Below, piece by piece: positions 21,756-52,269 of a DNA stretch of 64,000 bases (positions within the stretch are counted from its first letter, which is position 1; every line of letters begins with the position of its first letter). The notes under the pieces are model-generated. The model ran no database searches. It had not been told where the DNA came from and saw nothing but the letters and a program-made list of their open reading frames with translations. Position numbers and translations under genes: made by a program. The stretch lies in the NCBI GenBank assembly GCA_019058245.1, contig JAHPZJ010000014.1, forward strand, positions 1-64,000, written 5' to 3'. This stretch comes from Promethearchaeota archaeon. Its GTDB lineage: Archaea > Asgardarchaeota > Lokiarchaeia > Sigyniarchaeales > SOKP01.

Positions 21756-22127
21756 TTAATCTAATAATTCCGCGATTTTCCTCGAAACACTTTGGATATT
21801 TAAGAAAACCATCCCTAATGAAGCATCACTTTTTGCAAGAGTACATAATATAGCATTTTCTCCTGCTTTTGATAAAATAATTATCCCATCAACACCTTCT
21901 ATTAGAATTCTTTTTAGATCCCCTCGGGCAAGTTCTTCTACAGCACGTTCTGAAACACTTAATATAGCGGCACTCATAGCACTTACGATCCCATCATTTA
22001 CATCTCTAGCTAAAACTGAACAGATAGGTAAACCTTGTACACTAACAATAGCACTTCCTTGAATATCTGAGTTTACTGCTTCCATTCTTCTTAAAAGGTC
22101 AATGAGTTCACTGATATTTTCGCTCAA
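21756..22127 (-). CDS. roadblock/LAMTOR2 (MglB-like) protein
   Basis: IQGSAIVSVQGLPICS, VSAMSAAILSVSERAVEEL.RGDLKRILIEG, ASLGMVFL. Confidence 0.92.
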   Translation of the reverse strand: MSENISELIDLLRRMEAVNSDIQGSAIVSVQGLPICSVLARDVNDGIVSAMSAAILSVSERAVEELARGDLKRILIEGVDGIIILSKAGENAILCTLAKSDASLGMVFLNIQSVSRKIAELLD

Positions 22128-22292
22128 AAATTTATCAACTTGAATAAATAGTAGGTTATTGATCTAATTAGATAATAATATAATAATATTATTTATATTT
22201 TTAATTTTAATCTAATTTTAATATAAACTTTATTAATAAAGTTAATACTTATTTAAAAAATATTTTTATCTATATCCACATTAGTAATTATA

Positions 22293-23270
22293 ATGACTGA
22301 AAATGAAAATTTAAAAAACGAGATTAAAGAAGAAAAAAGTAAGGAAGAGTTGGATAAAGAAAAAGGAGAAAAACTTGAAAAAGAATCACTTCAAAAAGCT
22401 GGGAACATTGCGAAAGCAGTAAAAAAGTATATTAAGCCAAAAATTAAAGGAGGAGCAAAAGTTTTCGATTTAATAACTGATACTGAAGCGAAAATTGAGG
22501 AATTAGGGGGATCATGTGCTTTTCCTGCAAATATCTGTATAAATAATATCGCAGCACATTATACATCTCCCATTAAAGATGATGGGTTAGAAATACAAGA
22601 AGGAGATTTAGTTAAAATTGATCTAGGTGTCCATATAGAAGGATATATCGTAGATACCGCTTTTTCTATAAATTTAAGTGAAGAAGAATCACTTGAAAAT
22701 ATAATACAAGCAATTGAAATAGCGCTTGATGCCGCAAAAATGTTATCCAAACCCAAAACTAATACTCGAGACATTGGTAAAAAAATTGAAGAAATTGTTA
22801 AAGGTTTTAAATACAACCCAATCAGAGAACTTGGTGGTCATCAAATTGAAAGATGGACTGTTCATGGTAAAAAACAATTGCCTGAATTAGGATCTCAAGG
22901 AGGTGATATAATGGAGATTAATGAGGTTTTTGCTATTGAAATATTTGCCAGTACTGGTAAAGGTTCAGTTCATAACACCCAATATTCATATATTTATGAA
23001 ATTAATCCTTACGCTGGTAGAGTACCACTGCGTAGAAAAACATCTAAACAACTTCTTGGCTTTATTAATAAAAATTACAAGACTCTACCCTTTGCCGAGA
23101 GATGGTTAGCAAAAGAATTTAGATTAGGAGTAGCTTTTGGACTTCAAGAACTAATACAACAAGGGAAACTACAGGTACATAATGTATTAGCTGAAAAAAA
23201 GGGAGTTAATGTTGCCCAAATCGAGGAGACCATTCTCATAACTGAAGAAGGATTTGAACAACTCACTTGA
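22293..23270 (+). CDS. map: methionine aminopeptidase type II
   Basis: AFPANICINNIAAHYT, KIDLGVHIEGYIVDTAF, LGGHQI, FAIEIFASTGKG, TLPFAERWL. Confidence 0.95.
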   Translation: MTENENLKNEIKEEKSKEELDKEKGEKLEKESLQKAGNIAKAVKKYIKPKIKGGAKVFDLITDTEAKIEELGGSCAFPANICINNIAAHYTSPIKDDGLEIQEGDLVKIDLGVHIEGYIVDTAFSINLSEEESLENIIQAIEIALDAAKMLSKPKTNTRDIGKKIEEIVKGFKYNPIRELGGHQIERWTVHGKKQLPELGSQGGDIMEINEVFAIEIFASTGKGSVHNTQYSYIYEINPYAGRVPLRRKTSKQLLGFINKNYKTLPFAERWLAKEFRLGVAFGLQELIQQGKLQVHNVLAEKKGVNVAQIEETILITEEGFEQLT

Positions 23271-23497
23271 AATAACTATAAATATTATTTAATGGGATTG
23301 TTATAGAAAAACCCATATTTAATGAAAATACTTAAAGTTTTCTTTATAAATATAAGTGAACTCGATTGTAAAAAAAAAGAATCAATTTATCACAAATTAA
23401 TATTCAATAAATAAAATATAAACAAATTAAACTTTAACATTAGAATTGAAAGTTAAAGTTATTTACTCAATTCAAATTAAATTTGAATAATTATTTC

Positions 23498-24616
23498 TTA
23501 TGTATTTTTTAATTTATTTTTTACAAATTCAAAACAAACATCATTTGGATTCTCAAATTGACTAATTTTTTCTTTAAATGAGCTTATTTTAAATCTTTTT
23601 GGAGTAGGTCCTTGATTAAGAAGTTCAATAGTTCTTTCAACAATTTTATTTGAATCTTGTAAGTGTTCTAAAGGAAATCCCTTCTTTATCAAAAATTTCT
23701 CTTGTGGTGCTGATTCTCCAGGATAAAATTCTATACTGGGTACGTCTAATAAACTTGATTCTCTCACAATCGTACCACCACCACTAATAACTAATGCCCC
23801 ATAAAAACATAAATCAACTAGATTAGGTAAATATCGTGTAATAATTATATTTTCCTCTTTACTAAGATTCTTTAATTCTTTCATAAGAAATTGTTCTTGC
23901 TTATCTGAGCGAACTAAAATCAAATATTTATAGTTTGGAAACTCTCTAAAAATTGGAGGTAAAAACTTACTTATCTGAGTTTCTTCTGGTTTAATTTTTC
24001 CTATTAAATAAGAGGCGTGAGAGGGTTCAGTCCTCATGATTAAAAATTTTCCTTTCTCTAAATTAAGTTTATTAAGGATATTAGGATTGGGAAAATATTC
24101 TGAAAGCCAAGCAATTTCATCTAAACCATTATATCTAATAATCTTTTCGGGATCAGCATGAAGCTGTATAAAAAATTCCTTAGGCACGCATTCAGGAGTA
24201 ATGATATTATCTATGAATGGATGAATTAATTTACATACTGCTTTATTCCTTGGTTCATCATTCATCCCTATAGATGGTATCTTCAATCCATAGGCAATCC
24301 TTGTACCTTCCACAGAGAGAAATGTAACAAAAAAATCTGGTGAAAATTCATTAATTATAGGAAAGAGTTGATTTAAACGATCTATATATGCCCTTAATTT
24401 ATCTTCTAATTTTTCACCACCATGCTGACCAATTTTCCTACAACTTATTTCAGAATTGTCTAAAATTTGATAAGTAGAATCGTAATCTCGAGCAGTAATT
24501 AATAGTTCTATATCCTTATTTTCAAACTTTTTTATTAATGAATTAAACATAATAGCAGTTTTAGGTTGTTCAATATCAATCCAAATTCTTTTTCCAGAAA
24601 GACTCATAGTAAGCAC
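23498..24616 (-). CDS. DUF354-family GT-B-fold protein
   Basis: IWIDIEQP, ITARDY, IGQHGG, YNGLDEIAWL, ISGGGTIVRESSLLDVPSI. Confidence 0.8.
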   Translation of the reverse strand: MLTMSLSGKRIWIDIEQPKTAIMFNSLIKKFENKDIELLITARDYDSTYQILDNSEISCRKIGQHGGEKLEDKLRAYIDRLNQLFPIINEFSPDFFVTFLSVEGTRIAYGLKIPSIGMNDEPRNKAVCKLIHPFIDNIITPECVPKEFFIQLHADPEKIIRYNGLDEIAWLSEYFPNPNILNKLNLEKGKFLIMRTEPSHASYLIGKIKPEETQISKFLPPIFREFPNYKYLILVRSDKQEQFLMKELKNLSKEENIIITRYLPNLVDLCFYGALVISGGGTIVRESSLLDVPSIEFYPGESAPQEKFLIKKGFPLEHLQDSNKIVERTIELLNQGPTPKRFKISSFKEKISQFENPNDVCFEFVKNKLKNT

Positions 24617-24732
24617 TTAAATGAGTATTATGTTTTAATTTTTTTTATAAATATAACTATCATTTATAGAAAATTTGACAATTTATTGGAATTTTAATTA
24701 ATTGAATAGTAGATTTCATGGAGTAAGAAAAA

Positions 24733-25026
24733 TTATTTCTGACAAATACAAGGATTTGATTTACACTTAATACATTTACCGGGATATTTTTTTAACAAAG
24801 CAGATTCGAGATTAATTTCTAATAAATTTGCCAGGGAACTTGTCCAAGCAATAATATCCGCTAATTCTTCTGAGGCATTTTGTCTGTTTAAAACCTTATT
24901 TCTCAATACTCGTGCAAATTCTCCAATCTCCTCGATTAACCAAATAAAAGTGACCTCAATGCCTCTATTTAGATCTCGCTTGAAATAAAGATCTTTAATT
25001 AAATTTTGAAATTCTGAGACTTTCAT
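24733..25026 (-). CDS. MazG-like nucleotide pyrophosphohydrolase
   Basis: WLIEEIGEFA, EELADIIAW, KKYPGKCIKC. Confidence 0.88.
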   Translation of the reverse strand: MKVSEFQNLIKDLYFKRDLNRGIEVTFIWLIEEIGEFARVLRNKVLNRQNASEELADIIAWTSSLANLLEINLESALLKKYPGKCIKCKSNPCICQK

Positions 25027-25081
25027 GTGAACTCCATTTTAAATTGTGTGATTTTTTTTTATTGATAAAACATTACCAATC

Positions 25082-25303
25082 TTATCCACCGCTAGGGGTG
25101 AATAACCATGAAAAAACTCCAGCCCAAGCTAATAGTACGATTAGGATTAAAGCAATAGATAAAATCACTGTAGTTATAGGGCCTACTTTAATCCCAACTG
25201 AGCTATCCTGGAAGAATCTCATTAATCCTGCTCCCGCCATAGGCATTGGAGCACTACCACTTCGTCTCTTTTTACGTCTTGATTGAGTCGTACGAGAAGA
25301 CAT
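25082..25303 (-). CDS. secG: preprotein translocase subunit Sec61beta
   Basis: Basic N-terminus, AGLMRFFQD...IKVGP followed by one TM helix. Confidence 0.92.
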   Translation of the reverse strand: MSSRTTQSRRKKRRSGSAPMPMAGAGLMRFFQDSSVGIKVGPITTVILSIALILIVLLAWAGVFSWLFTPSGG

Positions 25304-25457
25304 AACTAAAATTAGTACTGAAATATATAATAATTATATTTTAAGATAATTACTAAAAGCATTTAAAATTTTATTTTGGAATGTAGTACAAAATATAGAA
25401 AATTTTTTTATCTTGTTTTAATTATTTTTTGATAATTTTAAGAAGAAGTTATATAAT

Positions 25458-27299
25458 ATGTTGAAAAAAGTAAGAATAGTATTAATTCTTGTATTTTTTT
25501 TAGTATTTTTAGTTAATGTTTTATTTCTTCCGCATCTATTTAATTTCAATTATAATGTAAAAAATAATGAGATAGATCAACCAAAATATTCCGCGACTTT
25601 AGAAGGAGCAGAGAATATCGTAGTCACCAATCTTCTTAGAAACGTCACCCTAAGTGGTTATGGTTTCACCTCATTTGAAGACTCTTTATCATTTACAAAT
25701 TATAATAATAATCCTATCACCTCAATTTTTGTTGGAATCCCATTATCTCATTCGGATGATCTAATTTTTTATAAAACTACAGGAGATAATGGAAATACTT
25801 TACTTACTGAACGTTCCTATATGATAGTAAAAGATTATGAAATGATTGCAATATATTTTGACACCCCCTTATTACCTCAACAAACAAAAACCATCAAATT
25901 TTTTCATCAATATAAAAATCTTATTTCATATACTCAAATAGATAAACAATATCTTATTTATAAGGGGCTTGCTTTTCCAATCTTGCCATACAGAGCAGAA
26001 GGAGATATAGAAGCTGATTATTACGTACCAGAAGGATCTGAAGATATAGATGGTGGTTGGGGTTTTGAAGTGCCCAGTCCTGAACATTATGTGTCTTATC
26101 AAGTAGGTTATCTTGAAGAACCAATTGAAGATTTGATATTAACACCATATATGGAAAATTTAAATAACTCAAAGCTGATTACCATCACATTTTCTCACCA
26201 GGAATATTCAAATATACAAATCAAAGAACTTAACAGAGAGATTTATCTTTCACCATGGGGGATAATGAGAATTACCGATGATATTACAGTTGAAAATTTT
26301 GGTACTATCTCTTTTGGACATGTTTTGCTTGATATACCGTCTAATGCTAAGAATATAATTGTGTCAGATGACTTAGGAAAATTACTATTTAGTTCAAAAA
26401 ACAAAAACGGAATGAAGGAGCTAACTATCGCTTTCTCATTAACTCGTGTCGTTTTGATCCCTAGTTCTACTTATAACTTTAAAGTCGAATATGACTTACC
26501 CTTTGAGGATTATTATTCTGTAAATTGGGACAAAGGATCAATTCAACTTGATATTTTATTAACAAAATTTGAATATCTTGGAAGAGATCAAACAACTACA
26601 ATTATTATCGATGGATGCAATACAATTAATCATATAACTGAACCTCCAAAAGCCATAAAAGAATCACGGGGTACTATTATATTAACATATGAATCGGATT
26701 ATATTGCACCTTTTGAAAGTAAATTAATTCAATTTACCTTTATAATTGATTTCTTCAACTTACTTCTAAGACCAATAGTTTTTATACTTTTAATATCTTT
26801 TATTGCATCAATTTATGTTTTAATTGTTAAATCAAGAAAGGAAAGCAGTGATATATTTGTTTTAAAAAAGGAGTTAATCCCAGTTAATGAAATACGGGAA
26901 TTTTGCTCTTTATATGAAGAGAAAAATGCATTATTCTTAGAAATCAGACAAGCAAAAGAAAATGAAAGAAGAAAGAAAATTTCTAAAAATAATTATAGAA
27001 AAATTTTAGATAAGAACACATCAAAAATAGATGAAATACAAAGAGAATTAAATCCCTTTAAGAAAGTATTAGAAACAAACATCAACTTTGAAAATATTAT
27101 AAAAAAATTAGATCTTCTTGAAGCAGAGCAAACCAGTGTTAAAGATAGCTTAAATCTTTTAGAGTCCCGATATAAAAGAGGAAGGTTACCTTCTAAAGCT
27201 GCTTATCTTAAATTATCTGAAGATTTCAAAAAAAGAAGTAAAAAGATTGACAGAAATATTGATAAATTAATTCAACAATTAAGAAGTTACCTACTTTAG
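25458..27299 (+). CDS. ribophorin I (RPN1/OST1)-like oligosaccharyltransferase subunit
   Basis: N-terminal signal/anchor; two beta-rich luminal repeats (RNVTLSGYG..FEDSLSFTN and REIYLSPWGIMRITDDITVEN, compare RPN1 R.IEVSHWG); TM helix; about 150-aa helical cytoplasmic tail. Confidence 0.8.
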   Translation: MLKKVRIVLILVFFLVFLVNVLFLPHLFNFNYNVKNNEIDQPKYSATLEGAENIVVTNLLRNVTLSGYGFTSFEDSLSFTNYNNNPITSIFVGIPLSHSDDLIFYKTTGDNGNTLLTERSYMIVKDYEMIAIYFDTPLLPQQTKTIKFFHQYKNLISYTQIDKQYLIYKGLAFPILPYRAEGDIEADYYVPEGSEDIDGGWGFEVPSPEHYVSYQVGYLEEPIEDLILTPYMENLNNSKLITITFSHQEYSNIQIKELNREIYLSPWGIMRITDDITVENFGTISFGHVLLDIPSNAKNIIVSDDLGKLLFSSKNKNGMKELTIAFSLTRVVLIPSSTYNFKVEYDLPFEDYYSVNWDKGSIQLDILLTKFEYLGRDQTTTIIIDGCNTINHITEPPKAIKESRGTIILTYESDYIAPFESKLIQFTFIIDFFNLLLRPIVFILLISFIASIYVLIVKSRKESSDIFVLKKELIPVNEIREFCSLYEEKNALFLEIRQAKENERRKKISKNNYRKILDKNTSKIDEIQRELNPFKKVLETNINFENIIKKLDLLEAEQTSVKDSLNLLESRYKRGRLPSKAAYLKLSEDFKKRSKKIDRNIDKLIQQLRSYLL

Positions 27300-27323
27300 A
27301 ATATCGATCTTGTGGAAAAAATC

Positions 27324-27947
27324 ATGAAACCATGGTTATTTGATATATTAGCATGTCCCATTGATAAATCTTTTCCATTAAAATTATATATTTTTTCTTT
27401 TGAAACGAAATCTGAAGAATTTGATGTATTTCTCGATATCTACTTAAAGAGAGATTTATCCTATATAAATGAAGAAAAAGTAATTGAAGTTTCTAAAAAA
27501 AAAGATGTCATGTATATAAAAGATAATATAACTATTGAGTATTATCCGATAAAATCTTATCTTGAATTGATTATTTCAAGCATTAATGAATTAGACAATA
27601 TCTTTGACAAAACTAAAAATACAAATAGTAAAAAATGTTTAAATTTAATAAAGACAGAGATTAAACAAAAAGTTATAGAATTTTTAAATAAGAATGAATT
27701 TAGCAACCTTAATGATATTTTACCTGAATTATACTTTCTAAATAAAATAAAAGTAGAAACTGAAATTGAATCAGGTTTATTATTTTGCGATAAATGTAGT
27801 CGTTGGTATCCAATAATAGATACTATACCACAAATGCTTCCAGATAAATATAGAGATAAACAAAAAGAAATTGAATTCCTTAAAATCAATAAAAATTTAT
27901 TAGATGAAGAATTCTTTTTTCAAAATTTAAAACCATATAATTTATAA
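27324..27947 (+). CDS. trm112: Trm112-family methyltransferase activator with a large internal insertion
   Basis: MKPWLFDILACPIDK..PLKL and EIESGLLFCDKCSRWYPIIDTIPQMLPD. Confidence 0.85.
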   Translation: MKPWLFDILACPIDKSFPLKLYIFSFETKSEEFDVFLDIYLKRDLSYINEEKVIEVSKKKDVMYIKDNITIEYYPIKSYLELIISSINELDNIFDKTKNTNSKKCLNLIKTEIKQKVIEFLNKNEFSNLNDILPELYFLNKIKVETEIESGLLFCDKCSRWYPIIDTIPQMLPDKYRDKQKEIEFLKINKNLLDEEFFFQNLKPYNL

Positions 27948-27952
27948 AAAAA

Positions 27953-28054
27953 AGCCCGGTGGTGTAGTGGCCAAGCATTTGGGGCCTTGAACCCCGCGAC
28001 CACGGTTCGAATATTAACAAGTATGCTTGTTAATTGAAATTCCGTGCCGGGCTA
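27953..28054 (+). tRNA. tRNA-Gln(UUG) with a 29-nt intron at position 59/60 (28012..28040); no encoded CCA
   Basis: Acceptor AGCCCGG/CCGGGCT (A1-U72, archaeal Gln identity); D-stem GTGT/GCAT; anticodon stem TGGGG/CCCCG with loop CCTTGAA (TTG at 27987-89); T-stem CACGG/CCGTG; the BHB splice restores TTCGAAT. Confidence 0.92.
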
Positions 28055-28127
28055 TTTTTATATAAAGAAAAGGGGAAATGCTAAAATATATCATTAATCT
28101 AAGTAAATAAAAATATCCCGCAATACC

Positions 28128-29492
28128 ATGACTCTTATTACAGAGCTAAATTGGAATTTCTTTAAAATTCTTTATTTAATAATAATTTTCGTAATTGGGT
28201 TTCTAGTTACTTATAAAATCCTCCCTTTAATAATTAAATTCATGAAAAAGAAAGGTCATGTGGGGTATGACATACATAAAAACGCTCAGCCTGAGATTGC
28301 TGAATCTGGTGGAATAGTTTTAGTGATTGGTTTTGCTCTTGTTTCAATTTTCTTAATATTATTTTTTCCAAAAATATCTCATGAGACGCTCATCTTTCTT
28401 TTAACTGTTATTCTTGCGGGAGTCATAGGATTTATTGATGACCTAATAAAATTAAAATCGAGATATAAAATTATCCTTTCAATATTTTGTGGGGGCCCTC
28501 TTTTTTTTGCAAATATTTTAGGTTTTGTATCAATCTCTTCACCCACAATACCATTTTTAGATAAAACCAGATTAAATTTCATTTATCCACTTATGATACC
28601 TGTAATTATAGCTGTTTTTGTAAATAGTATAAATATGTTAGAGGGCTATAATGGAGAAGGTTCTGGTACTAGTTTAATTATAGTATCATTTCTGTTTATT
28701 TGTGGGCTATTATGGAATTCAGCTGAAGCAGTGTTTTTTACTATTCCTGTTATATCAATATTAATCCCATTTTTTATTTTTAATAAATATCCTGCAAAAA
28801 TCTTCCCTGGAGATGTAGGAACTCTAAGTATGGGAGCAATGATCGCTTGCATTATGCTTTTTAGTTCACTTGAAGTTGCTACGTTTTGTGCTCTTCTAAC
28901 TCATATTATTAATAGTTTCTATGTGATTAATTCTGTTCGCGGATTCTTTGAAAGTAGTGATATTCATAAAGAAAAAAGTGATATTATATTACTTAAAGAT
29001 GATCGAATACAAGCATCAGATAAAAGAGATGCGGCTTTAACCCTACCTCGGCTAATATTAGCAAAAGGTCCATTAACAGAACCAGAGTTAGTAAAAAATA
29101 TTTTCGCTATTTCAATGAGTTGTGGATTTTTTTCTATTCTCTCAATAATTTTCTTGCTTGTTTCTACAGGAAATCTTGAATTTATTGTTCTTGTGATTTC
29201 CGTTATTATACTTTTTATTCCTACCTGTTATATATTATATAAATTTCCCAGAATAAGAGGAATAATTGTACAAATGATAATTTTACTAGTTTCGCTAATA
29301 TTTTTCCTATTTATTATTGAAATCTTTATTATGCCTTTACCATTTGATGATATTAGTTTTTTTATATTTGAAATTCCAGTTAATCTTTTACTTTCTTTTC
29401 TCTTTCTTGTTCCTGGATTAGTAGTTTGGTATATTCTAACTATTAAATCCTTTTGGATAGTAATTGAGAAAATGAAAAAGAAAAAGGAATAG
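28128..29492 (+). CDS. aglH: UDP-GlcNAc:dolichyl-phosphate GlcNAc-1-P transferase (AglH/ALG7/DPAGT1 family) with extra C-terminal TM helices
   Basis: GYDIHK, AESGG, IGFIDDL, NSINMLEGYNG, FNKYPAKIFPGDVGTL, LTLPRLIL..GPLTEPELV. Confidence 0.88.
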   Translation: MTLITELNWNFFKILYLIIIFVIGFLVTYKILPLIIKFMKKKGHVGYDIHKNAQPEIAESGGIVLVIGFALVSIFLILFFPKISHETLIFLLTVILAGVIGFIDDLIKLKSRYKIILSIFCGGPLFFANILGFVSISSPTIPFLDKTRLNFIYPLMIPVIIAVFVNSINMLEGYNGEGSGTSLIIVSFLFICGLLWNSAEAVFFTIPVISILIPFFIFNKYPAKIFPGDVGTLSMGAMIACIMLFSSLEVATFCALLTHIINSFYVINSVRGFFESSDIHKEKSDIILLKDDRIQASDKRDAALTLPRLILAKGPLTEPELVKNIFAISMSCGFFSILSIIFLLVSTGNLEFIVLVISVIILFIPTCYILYKFPRIRGIIVQMIILLVSLIFFLFIIEIFIMPLPFDDISFFIFEIPVNLLLSFLFLVPGLVVWYILTIKSFWIVIEKMKKKKE

Positions 29493-29592
29493 ATATAAAG
29501 GTATAAGATTTTCTCTATTTTTTCTAAAAAAATTAATTAACTCTATTATTTATTATCAAAATAAAAATAAAGAGAAAAATGAGGTACTATAG

Positions 29593-32133
29593 TTGAAAAA
29601 ATTTTTTAGAACTATCCTATTTTTTTTATATATTTTTATATCGATCATATCATCTATTTTTTTGAATATATCATTTTTTCATTTTAATTGGACAAGACTT
29701 ATAGTAGATTGGAGTTTCTTAATAACAATTTTCTTATATTTATTAACAATTGAAGAATTTTATCATTGGGTTCAAAACAATGAAAGAAGTGAAATGAGTG
29801 ATATAATTGCAATAGCATTTTTCTTTTTCCTTATTTTTTTCTTTTCTAAGGATTTTTTAACTTCTTTAATGGGAGCATTTTCAATTTATCTGTGGATTGG
29901 AATTTTTGAATTACGAGAATATCCAATATTAAATAAAATATTAATAATTTCTTTAGTGACTTACAATGTAATATTTATCGCAGGTATTATTTCCTTCTAT
30001 CAAAATAATCCTTTTTTTATAAATACTGCTTTTGCTTTTTCATTTTGGATTATATTGATTATGGGATTTATCTTATTTGGAAGAAAATATTTAATTGTGT
30101 GGAGATTTATGAGTCCCGAATATTTAACACTATTATTATATATAATAGCTTGGTTAGCAGTTGCTATTCTTAATCAATACACACCACTCAACTTCATAAG
30201 CAATAAATCCTTGATTTTTAATCAATTTTCAATTATCGATTATTTTATGAATATATATTTTATCCTAATCTGTGTGAATTGGATAATATATTTTATTTCT
30301 GGTTTAATTCTAGATAAAATGCTTGGAATTAAGAGAGTAAAAGACAGTTCTATTTTGAAAAAAGTAAAGAAAGTAAAAGACGATATTGGAATTAAAGCTA
30401 AAGTGAAAGTAGGTTTTGGACAATACCCAATTTTAAATGCCATGGCTTATGGTTCTTTTCTTGATAAAAGAATTGCAATTATTGCTGAGGACATGAATCA
30501 AATTCCAAATGATGAATTAAATGGTATTTTGGCTCATGAATTGGCACACACAAAAGGAAACCACACTTTAATTTTAACAATTATTACAACTGGGGATTTA
30601 ATTGTTAGAATGATTTTGGGTATCCCAGCCACATTTTACGATTATACTTTTGGAAACCCTCGGATTCCTATGATTCTTTTTATTTTTTTGAATATAGTAA
30701 TATATATCCTTCTTTTTGTATTTGTAAGAATTTTAGAAGGAAAGGCTGATTTAAAAGCGAAAAAAGCGGGATATGCTGGTGAGCTAGTTAAAGCACTTTA
30801 TAATTTAGAAAGCTTCTATGCTACTGGAAGAGAAATAGGATTGAATACGATGTTATTATGCGAGGAAAAGATAACAAAAGATAATCAACTATTAGATTAT
30901 ATGAATACAGCCATTTATTTACATCGTTCTATGATTAAACCATCAAGAGGCTCCCTAATTTCAAATTTTATAAATTCTCATCCACCTAGTTATCATAGAA
31001 TTGCAGGATTATTAAGTGATGAGTTAAAACCCAGCAAAGAAGCAATCCTTCCTTTTATTTGTTTAAGAAAATCTAAACAAAAAAAATATGCTAAAAAATT
31101 TGAAATTGCAAGAGGGAAATTTAAATTGATAGCAAATGAAAAATTTAAAGAATTTTTTAGAATTGACGATATTTCTTCACTAATGGTCAAACTTAGAAGG
31201 AATGAATTATATAAATTTGATGTTCAGAAAGATTATATTTTTCGGAATCTAATTACAGATGAATTAATTCTTGGAAAACTAGACAATATTGAATTTATTG
31301 ATGATATTTCTGATCCAGTCCAATTTATAGTAAATAAAAAAAAAAATAACAATATCTGTCGTTTAAATTCATCAAATTATATGCGTATTCGATATGATTT
31401 AAACGCACAATATTTCTTACAGAAAGATCAACCCTTAACTTTAACTGATATTGTAATTTCCAATAAAAGTAAAAAACCATACTATCTTTTCATGGAAAAT
31501 GATATCACTGAAATCCAAAAGTCAATTTTAAAGATACATTTACCAATTTCAAGTGTTCAAATCGAATCTTTGAAAAATCAAGAGGTTTTTTTAAAAACTC
31601 AAGGAACTTTAAAAAGATTTAAATGCACAAATATAATTAAAGCAGATAGTCTAGACAATTTTCAAATTGAATTATATAGTAAAGAGAATACAGATAAAGA
31701 ATCAATCAAATACAATTTCAATCAATTAATAATTCGACCTAAAAAAATTTATTTGAATATTAGCAGAAAATCCAATTTTCGAGAATCTGAAGTAAATATG
31801 ATTAAATGGTTATCCACTAACAAAATTCAATCTTTTATTCACCTTAAGAAACCTGTGAATAATATAGAAATTGGTTATATTCAGAATATTGAAGGCAATT
31901 TACAAAAAAATTATGAAAAACATTCAATCAATAACAATAAGAATGGAAATCTTTTACTAATAATAAATAATATTTTTGGAAAGGAAGAGAAAATTCCTTA
32001 TAAACAAATAGAAGCAATTTATTTTGAATATGATAGTGCTGTAATACTAATTAAATCAGCGACAAGCTTCAGTAGTCGGTTAGGATATAAAATATTAAAG
32101 AAGTTCAAACCTGAAAGAATAATTATGACTTAA
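29593..32133 (+). CDS. large membrane M48 (HtpX-like) zinc metalloprotease with extra N-terminal TM domain and C-terminal soluble extension
   Basis: NAMAYG, GILAHELAH (HExxH), EGKAD, SHPPSYHRI; TTG start with GAGGT upstream. Confidence 0.85.
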   Translation: MKKFFRTILFFLYIFISIISSIFLNISFFHFNWTRLIVDWSFLITIFLYLLTIEEFYHWVQNNERSEMSDIIAIAFFFFLIFFFSKDFLTSLMGAFSIYLWIGIFELREYPILNKILIISLVTYNVIFIAGIISFYQNNPFFINTAFAFSFWIILIMGFILFGRKYLIVWRFMSPEYLTLLLYIIAWLAVAILNQYTPLNFISNKSLIFNQFSIIDYFMNIYFILICVNWIIYFISGLILDKMLGIKRVKDSSILKKVKKVKDDIGIKAKVKVGFGQYPILNAMAYGSFLDKRIAIIAEDMNQIPNDELNGILAHELAHTKGNHTLILTIITTGDLIVRMILGIPATFYDYTFGNPRIPMILFIFLNIVIYILLFVFVRILEGKADLKAKKAGYAGELVKALYNLESFYATGREIGLNTMLLCEEKITKDNQLLDYMNTAIYLHRSMIKPSRGSLISNFINSHPPSYHRIAGLLSDELKPSKEAILPFICLRKSKQKKYAKKFEIARGKFKLIANEKFKEFFRIDDISSLMVKLRRNELYKFDVQKDYIFRNLITDELILGKLDNIEFIDDISDPVQFIVNKKKNNNICRLNSSNYMRIRYDLNAQYFLQKDQPLTLTDIVISNKSKKPYYLFMENDITEIQKSILKIHLPISSVQIESLKNQEVFLKTQGTLKRFKCTNIIKADSLDNFQIELYSKENTDKESIKYNFNQLIIRPKKIYLNISRKSNFRESEVNMIKWLSTNKIQSFIHLKKPVNNIEIGYIQNIEGNLQKNYEKHSINNNKNGNLLLIINNIFGKEEKIPYKQIEAIYFEYDSAVILIKSATSFSSRLGYKILKKFKPERIIMT

Positions 32134-32171
32134 AAAAATTTAATATAAATGTGTCTTTCTAAAATTTAATT

Positions 32172-33113
32172 ATGGTAAGTAAAATTAAAAGCGTTATTCG
32201 ACTTCTACGTATTCGGCAATATTATAAAAACTTCATGATTTTTGTTGGGATTTTTTTCAGTGGTAGATTATTTGATTACTCCCTCTATTTTCCCCTCTTA
32301 ATTGGTTTTGCTTTACTATGTTCGGCTTCATCTTTTAATTATATTATCAATGATATTCGAGATATTGAAAATGACAAAAAGCATCCAGAGAAAATAAGGA
32401 AGAAACCTCTTGCTTCCGGAGATCTTTCAATTTCTTTTGCCGTGTTAGTTTTAATTATATTAATTGTATTTATAGTGTTAAGTTTGGTATTTATTATTCC
32501 AAAGAACTCTACTGTTGGGCTAACACTCATGATAGTCTTCATAATCGTAACAGGCCAGCTGTACAATCATATTTTAAAAAATTTTGCTTTTATAGACATA
32601 ATAATCTTATCTACGGGATATTTATGGAGAGCTATAGCAGGTTGTGTTATTATTGGAGAATATATTTCGGGCTGGTTATATTTTGCAATCTTTGAGATTG
32701 CTCTATTCTTAAGTATTGCAAAAAGAAAGAGTGATTTAGAATTACTTGGTAAAGAAAGAGCCATTGAACATAAAAAAGTATATGATCAATACTCCCAAAA
32801 ATTATTAGATCAATTTTATGTAATGATTGCCGTCTCCATTTTTATGACTTATTCTCTTTATCTCATCTTTAAATTTAATTTGTTTATTCCAGAAGAAACA
32901 AGCCTCAATGAGCTGTTTGTTGTCCTAACAATACCAATTTCACTATATATAATTATGAGATTTATGTATCTTACCTCTGCTAAGCCAGAAATCGCTCGTA
33001 GTACTGAAAAAGCATTTCTAGATAAAGGAATGATTATTGCTAGCTTAATTATGTTTATTATTCTCATTTTATCTTTTTATCTTGAAGAAATTGTTGAAAT
33101 ACTAAACCTCTAA
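32172..33113 (+). CDS. UbiA-family prenyltransferase, polyprenyl-phosphate phosphoribosyltransferase-like
   Basis: LLRIRQYYKN, YIINDIRDIENDKKHPEK..KPLASG, LFLSIAKRKSDL. Confidence 0.8.
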   Translation: MVSKIKSVIRLLRIRQYYKNFMIFVGIFFSGRLFDYSLYFPLLIGFALLCSASSFNYIINDIRDIENDKKHPEKIRKKPLASGDLSISFAVLVLIILIVFIVLSLVFIIPKNSTVGLTLMIVFIIVTGQLYNHILKNFAFIDIIILSTGYLWRAIAGCVIIGEYISGWLYFAIFEIALFLSIAKRKSDLELLGKERAIEHKKVYDQYSQKLLDQFYVMIAVSIFMTYSLYLIFKFNLFIPEETSLNELFVVLTIPISLYIIMRFMYLTSAKPEIARSTEKAFLDKGMIIASLIMFIILILSFYLEEIVEILNL

Positions 33114-33300: not shown

Positions 33301-35022
33301 ATGGAAATGGAAAAGAAAAACTTAGCAATTATAATTTTAGCCGTTGTTCTAGTCGTATCTGGTGTTGGAAATATTATCCTTGGAGTATTAGTTTCAGTAC
33401 CTCAAGCAGCATCACAAAATACCATAATTGCTGGGGAGATGTATGGTCCTGATAATTTAGATCCTCATGAGTTATGGGAGAGTGCAGGCTTCAATATAGA
33501 TCAGCAAATTTACGAAGGGTTATATCGATATGCAATCGAAGATTCAGATATTCCACTTGTTCCACAGTTAGCAAGCGCAATTGGTAATTGGTCATATGCT
33601 TCAGTAGATCCTGAACATAGTATTGCAAATCTAACCATTGCCCTAAGACATGACGTAACTTTCCATGATGGAACTCCATTCACCGCTGCTGCAGTTAAAT
33701 GGAGCTTCGATAGATTAGCATATTGGATGAATGTAACAGGTGACCTTCCTGCTACTGAGACAGTCGCTCAAATAGAATCCCTATATAGATGGCCTGATTG
33801 GACCCCAGTTATTAATGAAACTGTAGTTGTTGATGATTATACAGTTAAATTCGTATTAAATAGACCTTATGGAGTGTTCGATGCTCTCTTATGTTTCAGT
33901 GGTTCATTTATTATGAAACCCATAGATGCCCAGTTGCATTCGAGGATTCAAGTATCACAAGCTTGTGCTCCAGGTGGAAGTGGAGACCAAATCATTGGAA
34001 CTGGTCCTTTTATTTTTGAATCATATAGGGCTGGTGTAGAGACAAGAATGAAACGTAATGACGATTATTATCTAGAACCAGCAGCAGTTGAAAGAGTAGT
34101 TATCACTATCATTCAAGATGCAGATGCTAGAAATAACGCGATGTTAGCAGGTGATATTAATCTTTTAGAATCCCCACATCCTTCGTTCTATGATGAGATG
34201 AGAGCCTCTACTAAAGTTAATCTTGTAGAAGTAGACTCCCCTGCAAGTTCAATTACACAATATCTAGGATTCAATAACAAATTAATTAATAAAACATGGA
34301 GACAAGCAATGTCATGGGCAATTAATTACTCTTACATGATTAATGAACTTTTAGAAGGTTATGCTTTAAGATTAGAATCAGCTATTCCTATGGGAATTGC
34401 ATATGCTAACTATTCAAGTCATGAAGCAGTTTATAATGTTACTAAAGCAAGGCAAATCATGCAAAGCATGGGATTTGGGACTACCTTTACTACAGACACT
34501 CAATGGCAAGGAGCTACGTTTAGATCGGTAAATTATACATATAATATCGGTAATAAATTCCGAGAAGATATGTTGATCTTATTACAACAAAATCTCGCTA
34601 ATATTGGAATTAAAGTCACAGACAATGGTCAAGAATGGACTCCATACCTCGATTTAGTCTATAATAGAACAGCTCCCGGCTATGATGGATTGGAGCTCTG
34701 GTTTATTGGATGGATACCTGATTATAATGATCCAAGTAATTATGTTAATTCTTTGATGTCTAATGTATCATCTGGTAACGCAGCTCAAATTAACGATCCC
34801 ACGTTAGAAGGGCTGCTAAGAGCAGGTCTAGTTGAAACTAATACTACCCTAAGAGCGCAAATCTATAATGAGATGCAACAATATCTTTGCGAAGATCTCA
34901 TGCCATGGGCATGGGGTTATAGTTCCTTAAACAGAGATGCCTTTGCGCCAAATCTAAAAGGATTTCCAACTAACCCATGGGGCTATGTATATTTCTATCC
35001 TTGCTATTTTGTTGTAGACTAG
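33301..35022 (+). CDS. oppA: ABC peptide transporter substrate-binding protein (family 5), N-terminally anchored
   Basis: LDP, IYEGL, LRHDVTFHDGTPFTAAAVKWSFDR, IGTGPF, GWIPDYNDPSNY. Confidence 0.9.
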   Translation: MEMEKKNLAIIILAVVLVVSGVGNIILGVLVSVPQAASQNTIIAGEMYGPDNLDPHELWESAGFNIDQQIYEGLYRYAIEDSDIPLVPQLASAIGNWSYASVDPEHSIANLTIALRHDVTFHDGTPFTAAAVKWSFDRLAYWMNVTGDLPATETVAQIESLYRWPDWTPVINETVVVDDYTVKFVLNRPYGVFDALLCFSGSFIMKPIDAQLHSRIQVSQACAPGGSGDQIIGTGPFIFESYRAGVETRMKRNDDYYLEPAAVERVVITIIQDADARNNAMLAGDINLLESPHPSFYDEMRASTKVNLVEVDSPASSITQYLGFNNKLINKTWRQAMSWAINYSYMINELLEGYALRLESAIPMGIAYANYSSHEAVYNVTKARQIMQSMGFGTTFTTDTQWQGATFRSVNYTYNIGNKFREDMLILLQQNLANIGIKVTDNGQEWTPYLDLVYNRTAPGYDGLELWFIGWIPDYNDPSNYVNSLMSNVSSGNAAQINDPTLEGLLRAGLVETNTTLRAQIYNEMQQYLCEDLMPWAWGYSSLNRDAFAPNLKGFPTNPWGYVYFYPCYFVVD

Positions 35023-51768: not shown

Positions 51769-52269
51769 TTAAATTTCACCCATTTTTACAGCTATCATAT
51801 ATTGGAGCATTATAAATGTTATAATAATCATTACCATTCCAATTACTAAAATCCAAACAGCCATTCTTTTATTATACACATATTTAGATGCTTGAAATAA
51901 TGCAATAAAACCAATAGAACAAAATAAAATTAAAATAGAGGCCACAATCCCTTCAATAATAAAACTTTCATGGATATCTTTATAGATAAGCACAGGATTC
52001 CCTTGGCTATCTCCCCCTATTGCAGGAGGGTCTCTAACCATAAAATAAACTACACCAGTTTGAAGGATAAATAATATTATTAAGATGGTAATTATACTTA
52101 GGGATCTTGAAGGTGATGGAAATGAAAGTCTTGGAAGTTTTAACTTAGGAAAATTAATCTTTGGTCTCCTTAATGATTTTCCAAAAACCCAAGGTGTTTT
52201 ATCTTTAATCTTCTCAAAAATAGTTTCAGAACCAATAATTTCCTCTTTTTTTGATCCTACTTTCTGCAT
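51769..52269 (-). CDS. OSTC/DC2-like (OST3/OST6 family, TM-only) oligosaccharyltransferase subunit
   Basis: Three TM helices; LQTGVVYFMVRDPPAIG and FIIEGIVASIL...IGFIAL resemble DC2 LITGGIIYDVIVEPPSVG and YIMEGLASSFL...LGFIIL. Confidence 0.75.
   Translation of the reverse strand: MQKVGSKKEEIIGSETIFEKIKDKTPWVFGKSLRRPKINFPKLKLPRLSFPSPSRSLSIITILIILFILQTGVVYFMVRDPPAIGGDSQGNPVLIYKDIHESFIIEGIVASILILFCSIGFIALFQASKYVYNKRMAVWILVIGMVMIIITFIMLQYMIAVKMGEI

Follow-up and report, generated by a model that had tools for sequence, protein, structure and literature searches.

The first 64,000 nucleotides of contig JAHPZJ010000014.1 of a Promethearchaeota archaeon (GCA_019058245.1; Lokiarchaeia, Sigyniarchaeales), the stretch that we analysed and call the window, contain a block of genes (21756-33113) in which the gene for Ost1 (ribophorin I, RPN1), a subunit of eukaryotic oligosaccharyltransferase (OST), stands back to back with the gene for the translocon subunit Sec61beta and close to candidate enzymes of lipid-linked glycan synthesis. 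This arrangement recurs in about 80 species-level genomes, far beyond what chance would produce. We consider it probable, with a good deal of reserve, that the block is a conserved Ost1 neighbourhood for glycan initiation that is specific to the lineage of Loki-type Asgard archaea. A leftward run holds sec61beta, a mazG-like gene and a DUF354 gene, and a rightward run holds ost1, trm112, a tRNA-Gln gene, an aglH-type gene of family GT4, an M48 protease gene and ubiA; the two divergent runs are probably operons. All of the open reading frames and gene identities proposed by the sequence-only reading, an earlier annotation made from the letters without database searches, are present, and the expected Pfam families match them (see the table below).

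The case for the block begins with its conservation inside the order. We compared it with 80 related loci, collected in a scan of species-representative genomes for relatives of Ost1 (41-88% Ost1 identity), and expressed the retention of each gene relative to the loci that have room for it. Nearly all loci of sufficient length display the same order, with the type II methionine aminopeptidase (M24), DUF354, MazG-like and Sec61beta genes on one side and, divergent from them, Ost1, Trm112, GT4, M48 and UbiA on the other. The genes of the block are kept in 84-100% of the Loki-type loci and those lying 5-10 kb to either side in 32-58%; the linkage in related genomes, on which the sequence-only reading had staked its proposal, is thus real. 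Retention is complete for Ost1, Trm112 and the MazG-like gene (the last in 74 of 74 loci), and it is 66 of 70 for DUF354 and 60 of 68 for the M24 gene, which lies near the block's left edge. Sec61beta adjoins Ost1 in 78 of the 80 loci; the contigs of the other two begin at Ost1. Between the two start codons, where the sequence-only reading had seen about 155 bp, the window has 154 bp; the corresponding spacer in 76 related loci has a median length of 152 bp, falls mostly between 147 and 159 bp and is 87% A+T. The median gaps within the runs are 23 bp between Ost1 and Trm112 (78 loci), 43 bp between Sec61beta and MazG, and 125 bp between MazG and DUF354. Because the accession numbers of Ost1 and Sec61beta in strain MK-D1 (Candidatus Prometheoarchaeum syntrophicum) are consecutive (WP_147663064 and WP_147663065), the pairing probably exists in that organism as well.

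The product of 25458-27299 is a true ribophorin I/Ost1 with the cytosolic four-helix bundle of the mammalian type, in line with the RPN1-like label that the sequence-only reading had given it. When searched against Pfam with hmmscan the protein returned no match, even at an E-value of 10. In a search of the genome with PF04597, its reading frame scored 33.5 bits over model positions 2-228 (41.7 bits summed), which is weak for a single sequence, and a precomputed match to this family is present in most of its close homologues. A profile of 76 family members, run against the PDB, aligned almost end to end with human RPN1 (6s7o_E; E 8.6e-39, positions 49-594 against 26-604) and also found yeast Ost1 (6c26_1; E 1.2e-17) and the MK-D1 structure 8WHN (E 1.4e-61); residues 462-613 match 8WHN with an E-value of 3.5e-31. 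The AlphaFold 2 (AF2) model of the protein, with a mean predicted local distance difference test score (pLDDT) of 89.4, consists of an N-terminal helix, a beta-rich outer domain with strands throughout residues 54-430, a membrane helix (432-459) and a cytosolic four-helix bundle (476-612). In a Foldseek comparison of this model with the PDB, every one of the top eight matches is an RPN1/Ost1 chain (E 3e-32 to 6e-21), and the next, unrelated ones follow at 1e-7. The model superimposes on 8WHN with a TM score of 0.87 and a root-mean-square deviation of 2.0 Å, at 47% identity.

Ost1 is the fastest-evolving gene of the block, with a median identity of 49% compared with 59-76% for its neighbours (loci L010-L089). 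This rapid evolution, together with compositional bias, probably lies behind the failure of hmmscan, and likewise behind a discrepancy in the published record: Ost1 was reported absent from MK-D1, whose agl genes were called dispersed (Nakagawa et al. 2024, PMC11284389), when part of its structure has been solved elsewhere. The cytosolic domain of MK-D1 OST1 (8WHN) pulls down ribosomes (Carilo et al. 2024, PMC11417166). A complex prediction for Ost1 residues 420-613 with Sec61beta scored 0.00, below the mark, and weighs neither way. As a separate observation, a locus labelled Thorarchaeota encodes an Ost1 homologue of 993 amino acids (L099:7979-10960) that NCBI annotates as an FKBP-type peptidyl-prolyl isomerase and that has an AglH-type gene as its divergent neighbour; Ost1 may here be fused to a folding enzyme.

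Beyond the order, the neighbourhood of Ost1 changes in an instructive way. Of 301 genomes taken from across the phylum, 151 have an Ost1 that PF04597 detects, and we scanned 40 Ost1 loci from 22 other families with profiles made from the Loki-type loci, counting a gene as linked when it lies within about 9 kb of Ost1. Sec61beta adjoins Ost1 only in the window's family and a sister family of the same order; in five genomes from Heimdallarchaeum, Hodarchaeales, Borrarchaeum and Atabeyarchaeia it lies 38 kb to 1.4 Mb from Ost1 or on another contig. M48 and UbiA, too, are linked to Ost1 only inside the order. The GT4 gene, by contrast, is found near Ost1 in seven families: it is its divergent and adjacent neighbour at 171-190 bp in Thorarchaeia and in Freyarchaeota/Jordarchaeia and at 668 bp in Helarchaeota (Helarchaeales), and it is also nearby in Atabeyarchaeia and Borrarchaeum. 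Trm112 lies near Ost1 in eight families, among them Hodarchaeales (adjacent and convergent), Heimdallarchaeum (at 6-8 kb), Borrarchaeum and Atabeyarchaeia, and DUF354 does so in four. Hexapeptide-repeat genes of the acyl- or nucleotidyltransferase type occur in these surroundings in ten families, group-1 glycosyltransferases in four. Since the GT4, Trm112 and DUF354 links recur across classes, we infer that the association of Ost1 with these genes, and above all with the glycan-initiating enzyme, is the older and wider one. The Sec61beta-Ost1 pair, confined as it is to one order, is therefore not an ancestral feature of a proto-endoplasmic reticulum (proto-ER); rather, it looks like a later, order-specific rearrangement within Lokiarchaeia.

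The block carries the genome's sole Sec61beta, its sole member of the polyprenyl-phosphate N-acetylhexosamine-1-phosphate transferase (PNPT) family, its sole DUF354 gene and its sole Trm112p-domain match. The GT4 protein, the PNPT-family member, displays in translation the catalytic Asp-Asp of that family (IDD, residues 103-105), its NxxNxxxGxNG motif (NSINMLEGYNG) and its FxGDxG motif (FPGDVG). The xGxNG form of the second motif is typical of the ALG7/AglH branch. Among NCBIfam models it found weak MraY matches only, and its orthologues in Jordarchaeia are labelled GPT by JGI. In each of five Loki-type genomes it is the single PF00953 gene, always inside the block. We noticed that it bears a C-terminal extension of about 150 residues (approximately 300-454), with some four hydrophobic helices by eye and no significant Pfam match. 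In Borrarchaeum, Atabeyarchaeia and one further family, this tail is a separate open reading frame of 93-109 amino acids directly after GT4. The arrangement amounts to the fusion, or the splitting, of a small membrane partner.

The UbiA protein has its best NCBIfam match in decaprenyl-phosphate phosphoribosyltransferase (DPPR; NF008977), at 184.5 bits over residues 5-305. It belongs to the UbiA superfamily, within which it is nearest to the DPPR branch, and is not to be filed as the same enzyme. The M48 protein has the HExxH zinc site (HELAH); its HtpX equivalog scores of 27-41 bits fall far under the cut-offs, its long C-terminal region is without family assignment, and a sequence search against solved structures found no match for it. 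For DUF354, the AF2 model (pLDDT 92) adopts a GT-B fold. In VIA-align it is closest to UDP-N-acetylglucosamine 2-epimerases (Z 27.2-27.5), whereas GT-B transferases reach Z values of at most 22 (PglA 22.0; MurG 20.0), and Foldseek agrees. In two relatives, the DUF354 gene is the only match to Glyco_tran_28_C (26 bits). Most Asgard archaea lack Alg13/14 (PMC8993221), and we found no Alg14 in five genomes; DUF354 has no match in Sulfolobus acidocaldarius, the organism from which Agl24 comes. The idea that DUF354 might be the missing Alg13/14 or an Agl24 analogue is weakened by the epimerase-like fold predicted for it. A literature search for DUF354 returned unrelated DUF354x families only.

Table. 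Features of the conserved block, in order of position in the window, and the open reading frames that correspond to the GT4 tail in other Asgard families. Bit scores followed by "vs" are compared with the curated cut-off of the model; the Pfam cut-off of PF04597 is 25 bits.
Feature	Position	Strand	Evidence or remark
Type II methionine aminopeptidase (M24)	22293..23270	+	Peptidase_M24 5e-24; met_pdase_II 263 bits vs 223
DUF354, GT-B fold	23498..24616	-	Pfam DUF354 2e-49; last gene of leftward run
MazG-like nucleotide pyrophosphohydrolase domain protein, 97 aa	24733..25026	-	Pfam MazG 2.3e-7, 31 bits vs 22
Sec61beta, 73 aa	25082..25303	-	Sec61_beta 1e-10, 41.8 bits vs 27; first gene of leftward run
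Divergent spacer between Sec61beta and Ost1 start codons	25304..25457		154 bp, AT-rich
Ost1/ribophorin I, 613 aa	25458..27299	+	PF04597 33.5 bits, profile, fold
Trm112, 211 aa	27312..27947	+	Trm112p 1e-9, 38.4 bits vs 22; starts 12 bp past Ost1 stop
tRNA-Gln(UUG), 29-nt T-loop intron 28012-28040	27953..28054	+	ARAGORN after intron removal
AglH/ALG7-type polyprenyl-phosphate HexNAc-1-phosphate transferase (GT4), 454 aa	28128..29492	+	Glycos_transf_4 7e-30, 104.5 bits
Membrane M48 zinc metalloprotease, 846 aa	29593..32133	+	Peptidase_M48 3e-18, 66.6 bits vs 20.3
UbiA-family transferase	32172..33113	+	Pfam UbiA 1e-16, 61 bits vs 34
Separate GT4-tail open reading frames	L107:14051-14329(-); L106:4862-5188(+); L102:15334-15621(-)		

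Of the remaining members of the block, Sec61beta has a basic N-terminus, the conserved motif GAGLMRFF and a single hydrophobic helix at its C-terminus, a tail-anchored topology; it scores 47.4 bits against the NCBIfam equivalog, below its cut-off of 55. The methionine aminopeptidase gene is convergent with DUF354, and its product acts on nascent chains at the ribosome. In Trm112, about 125 residues separate the halves of the zinc knuckle as an insert, and the first cysteine pair is reduced to one cysteine; the NCBIfam model Trm112_arch covers only its C-terminal half, at 49.8 bits against a cut-off of 77. In the genomes that we checked, the copy linked to Ost1 is the only stand-alone Trm112 gene. 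In other Asgard families Trm112 varies between 90 and 250 amino acids in length, and with its eight families it is the most widely conserved neighbour of Ost1.

The tRNA gene that the sequence-only reading had placed after trm112 is real. Neither ARAGORN nor Rfam found a tRNA there in the raw window DNA; once the intron in the T-loop is cut out, ARAGORN calls a 73-nt tRNA-Gln(ttg). Its first exon directly follows Trm112 in 75 of the 80 related loci. In eukaryotes, Trm9-Trm112 modifies U34 of tRNA-Gln(UUG), and the adjacency of the two genes may for that reason not be accidental.

Two further genes of the window lie outside the block. The gene directly after it, at 33301-35022, encodes a solute-binding protein of family 5. 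This protein has a membrane anchor at its N-terminus and contains 12 N-X-S/T sequons, or 2.1 per 100 residues compared with 0.3-0.8 in the neighbouring proteins. In 36 of 46 related loci, too, a family 5 protein comes after UbiA; the identity among them is low, and they are therefore probably paralogues. The dominant glycoprotein of MK-D1 is also a family 5 solute-binding protein (PMC11284389). An OST3_OST6-like membrane protein (42 bits, in a frame of 167 amino acids) is encoded at 51778-52113 on the minus strand, 25 kb downstream of Ost1, and a second one occurs on contig C13.

Taken together, the gene families suggest how such a neighbourhood might work. The GT4 enzyme would transfer N-acetylhexosamine (HexNAc)-1-phosphate to dolichyl phosphate and thereby start the lipid-linked N-glycan, the UbiA-type enzyme would produce a pentose phosphate bound to a lipid, and DUF354 would act on UDP-HexNAc, either as an epimerase-like enzyme or as a transferase. 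Ost1 would be the accessory subunit that holds AglB/STT3, the product of a gene elsewhere, at the ribosome-bound SecY-SecE-Sec61beta channel, and the later, order-specific pairing with Sec61beta may provide co-regulation. In MK-D1, the first sugar of the N-glycan is a HexNAc derivative of 304.13 Da and the second a pentose (Nakagawa et al. 2024, PMC11284389). The contents of the block, with a putative HexNAc-1-phosphate transferase, an epimerase-like enzyme that would act on UDP-HexNAc and a phosphoribosyl-type UbiA, fit this start.

Several observations weigh against assigning the block to glycan initiation. The MazG-like protein, Trm112, tRNA-Gln and the methionine aminopeptidase are as well conserved as the other members and have no known role in glycosylation; gene order alone is therefore no proof of a shared function. 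STT3/AglB was found neither in the window nor in the rest of its genome, which, being 76% complete, offers no evidence of absence, and in 25 of 25 complete relatives it is one gene of about 1,300 codons located away from Ost1. A search for Sec61beta within about 9 kb of Ost1 turned up nothing credible in the 38 loci of 20 other Asgard families, even at an E-value of 50, and the Heimdallarchaeaceae and Hodarchaeales loci that we sampled have neither GT4 nor DUF354 near Ost1. Position-specific profiles of the spacer, anchored at either start codon, yielded only A and T tracts of less than 1 bit per position. GT4 scores equally well against human DPAGT1 (1.2e-10) and MraY (9.4e-11), UbiA stays below the equivalog cut-off of NF008977 (234 bits), and the putative substrates of GT4, UbiA and DUF354 are those that family resemblance suggests. 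Part of this would follow if the synteny reflected no shared function, that is if slowly rearranging, single-copy housekeeping genes had kept their order by descent and tight packing. Such an explanation accommodates best-kept neighbours as unrelated to glycans as Trm112, tRNA-Gln, the MazG-like gene and the aminopeptidase, as well as a spacer that lacks a conserved motif, and with flanks kept in a third to half of the loci the background synteny of the order is high. We nevertheless hold it to be unlikely, since the block is clearly better kept than its flanks and its order has stayed fixed while Ost1 diverged down to 41% identity. Moreover, the links of Ost1 with GT4, DUF354 and Trm112 recur across classes in changed orientation and spacing, which is not expected from the inheritance of one arrangement, and by chance only about 0.6% of genomes would have a given single-copy gene within 9 kb of another one.

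The sequence-only reading had gone further and proposed a co-regulated proto-ER module. Taken as an ancestral unit that couples translocation, glycan synthesis, glycan transfer and M48-based quality control, and that foreshadows the translocon of Sec61 and OST-A, such a module could draw on the divergent pair, whose spacer keeps its length in about 76 species, on the OST3/6-like gene 25 kb away in the same window, and on the fact that Ste24- and HtpX-type M48 proteases handle clogged or damaged translocons and membrane proteins in other organisms. The face of the eukaryotic OST-A complex that is turned towards Sec61, however, is formed by STT3A and DC2, not by RPN1. The links to Sec61beta, M48 and UbiA are limited to one order; the closest lineages to eukaryotes, Hodarchaeales and Heimdallarchaeaceae, do not have them, and STT3 is encoded elsewhere. 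Ost1 does possess the ribosome-binding bundle of mammalian RPN1 (PMC11417166), which speaks for the proposal. On balance we regard the ancestral module as distinctly improbable: its gene identities and its linkage in relatives stood up, but its translocon, protease and UbiA links do not extend past one order, and STT3 is not in the locus. Co-regulation with Sec61beta within Lokiarchaeia is plausible and unproven, and it would not be ancestral. A stronger version would see one regulatory unit here, in which a bidirectional promoter of fixed length co-expresses Sec61beta and Ost1 and so keeps translocon and OST docking in step, and in which the block encodes the first two residues of the MK-D1 N-glycan, the HexNAc derivative through the AglH-type enzyme and DUF354 and the pentose through UbiA as a dolichyl-phosphate phosphoribosyl transferase; as a whole, this seems to us rather doubtful. 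It is very improbable that GT4, UbiA and DUF354 build a different lipid-linked glycan, such as a surface polysaccharide or a glycolipid, and that Ost1 is nearby by descent only. PNPT and DPPR-type UbiA enzymes do serve bacterial cell-wall polymers, GT4 matches MraY as well as it does DPAGT1, and UbiA scores under its equivalog cut-off. Yet GT4, as the sole PNPT-family gene of five Loki-type genomes, is the only candidate if the HexNAc-derived linker sits on a pyrophosphate carrier, and the N-glycans of MK-D1 contain precisely a HexNAc-derived linking sugar and a pentose. These considerations leave a lineage-specific Ost1 neighbourhood for glycan initiation as the reading that we prefer.

The Asgard proteins themselves were already known (Eme 2023, PMC10307638; Carilo 2024, PMC11417166), and have been since Zaremba-Niedzwiedzka 2017, as cited in a passage of PMC8993221. 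We found no description of the gene arrangement in the searchable literature, and Carilo 2024 is silent on gene order; the conserved arrangement is thus a modest detail, apparently unpublished. Its interest lies in the fact that the Ost1 of Asgard archaea is regularly cited as a mark of eukaryote-like protein processing, and the order of its neighbours may hint at the role that it plays in the archaeon itself. With several Asgard classes keeping Ost1 near the sole initiating transferase, gene order offers independent genomic support for the view that Ost1 works with the N-glycan pathway, and it marks the Sec61beta pairing as a Lokiarchaeial innovation, not an ancestral trait. It also points to candidate enzymes for the unusual start of the Lokiarchaeial N-glycan, with its HexNAc derivative and pentose, and these enzymes can be assayed directly. 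If the block were indeed one regulatory unit that encodes this start, glycan supply, OST and translocon would be functionally tied together in a cell that has no ER, and DUF354 as well as an archaeal DPPR-like UbiA enzyme would gain an assigned function.

The closest known counterpart of the window's Ost1 is MK-D1 OST1 (WP_147663064.1; 8WHN), which belongs to the same family and has the same architecture; it comes from another species, and ribosome binding was shown for the MK-D1 protein, not for that of the window. Eukaryotic RPN1/Ost1 (6S7O and 8B6L; in yeast 6EZN and 6C26) is homologous over nearly its full length, with the same fold and topology and, in mammals, the same cytosolic bundle. 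Identity is about 14%, however, the eukaryotic genes are unclustered, and the archaeon lacks an internal membrane system. Compared with eukaryotic OST, the block holds only Ost1 among the subunits that we looked for (Ost1, STT3 and OST3/6), with the OST3/6-like gene 25 kb away. Decaprenyl-phosphate phosphoribosyltransferase of the mycobacterial arabinan pathway, the best family for 32172-33113 and aligned with it end to end, transfers phosphoribose from phosphoribosyl pyrophosphate to polyprenyl phosphate and so yields a lipid-linked pentose. The window's UbiA differs in its sub-cut-off score, its lipid would be dolichyl phosphate, and a tie to the pentose of MK-D1 is suggested by this family likeness. 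Finally, the archaeal agl clusters centred on aglB (in Haloferax, Methanococcus and others) likewise group genes for lipid-linked glycans, the initiating transferase and sugar-nucleotide enzymes. The block of the window differs from them: in place of AglB, it carries a eukaryote-type Ost1 and a subunit of the translocon.

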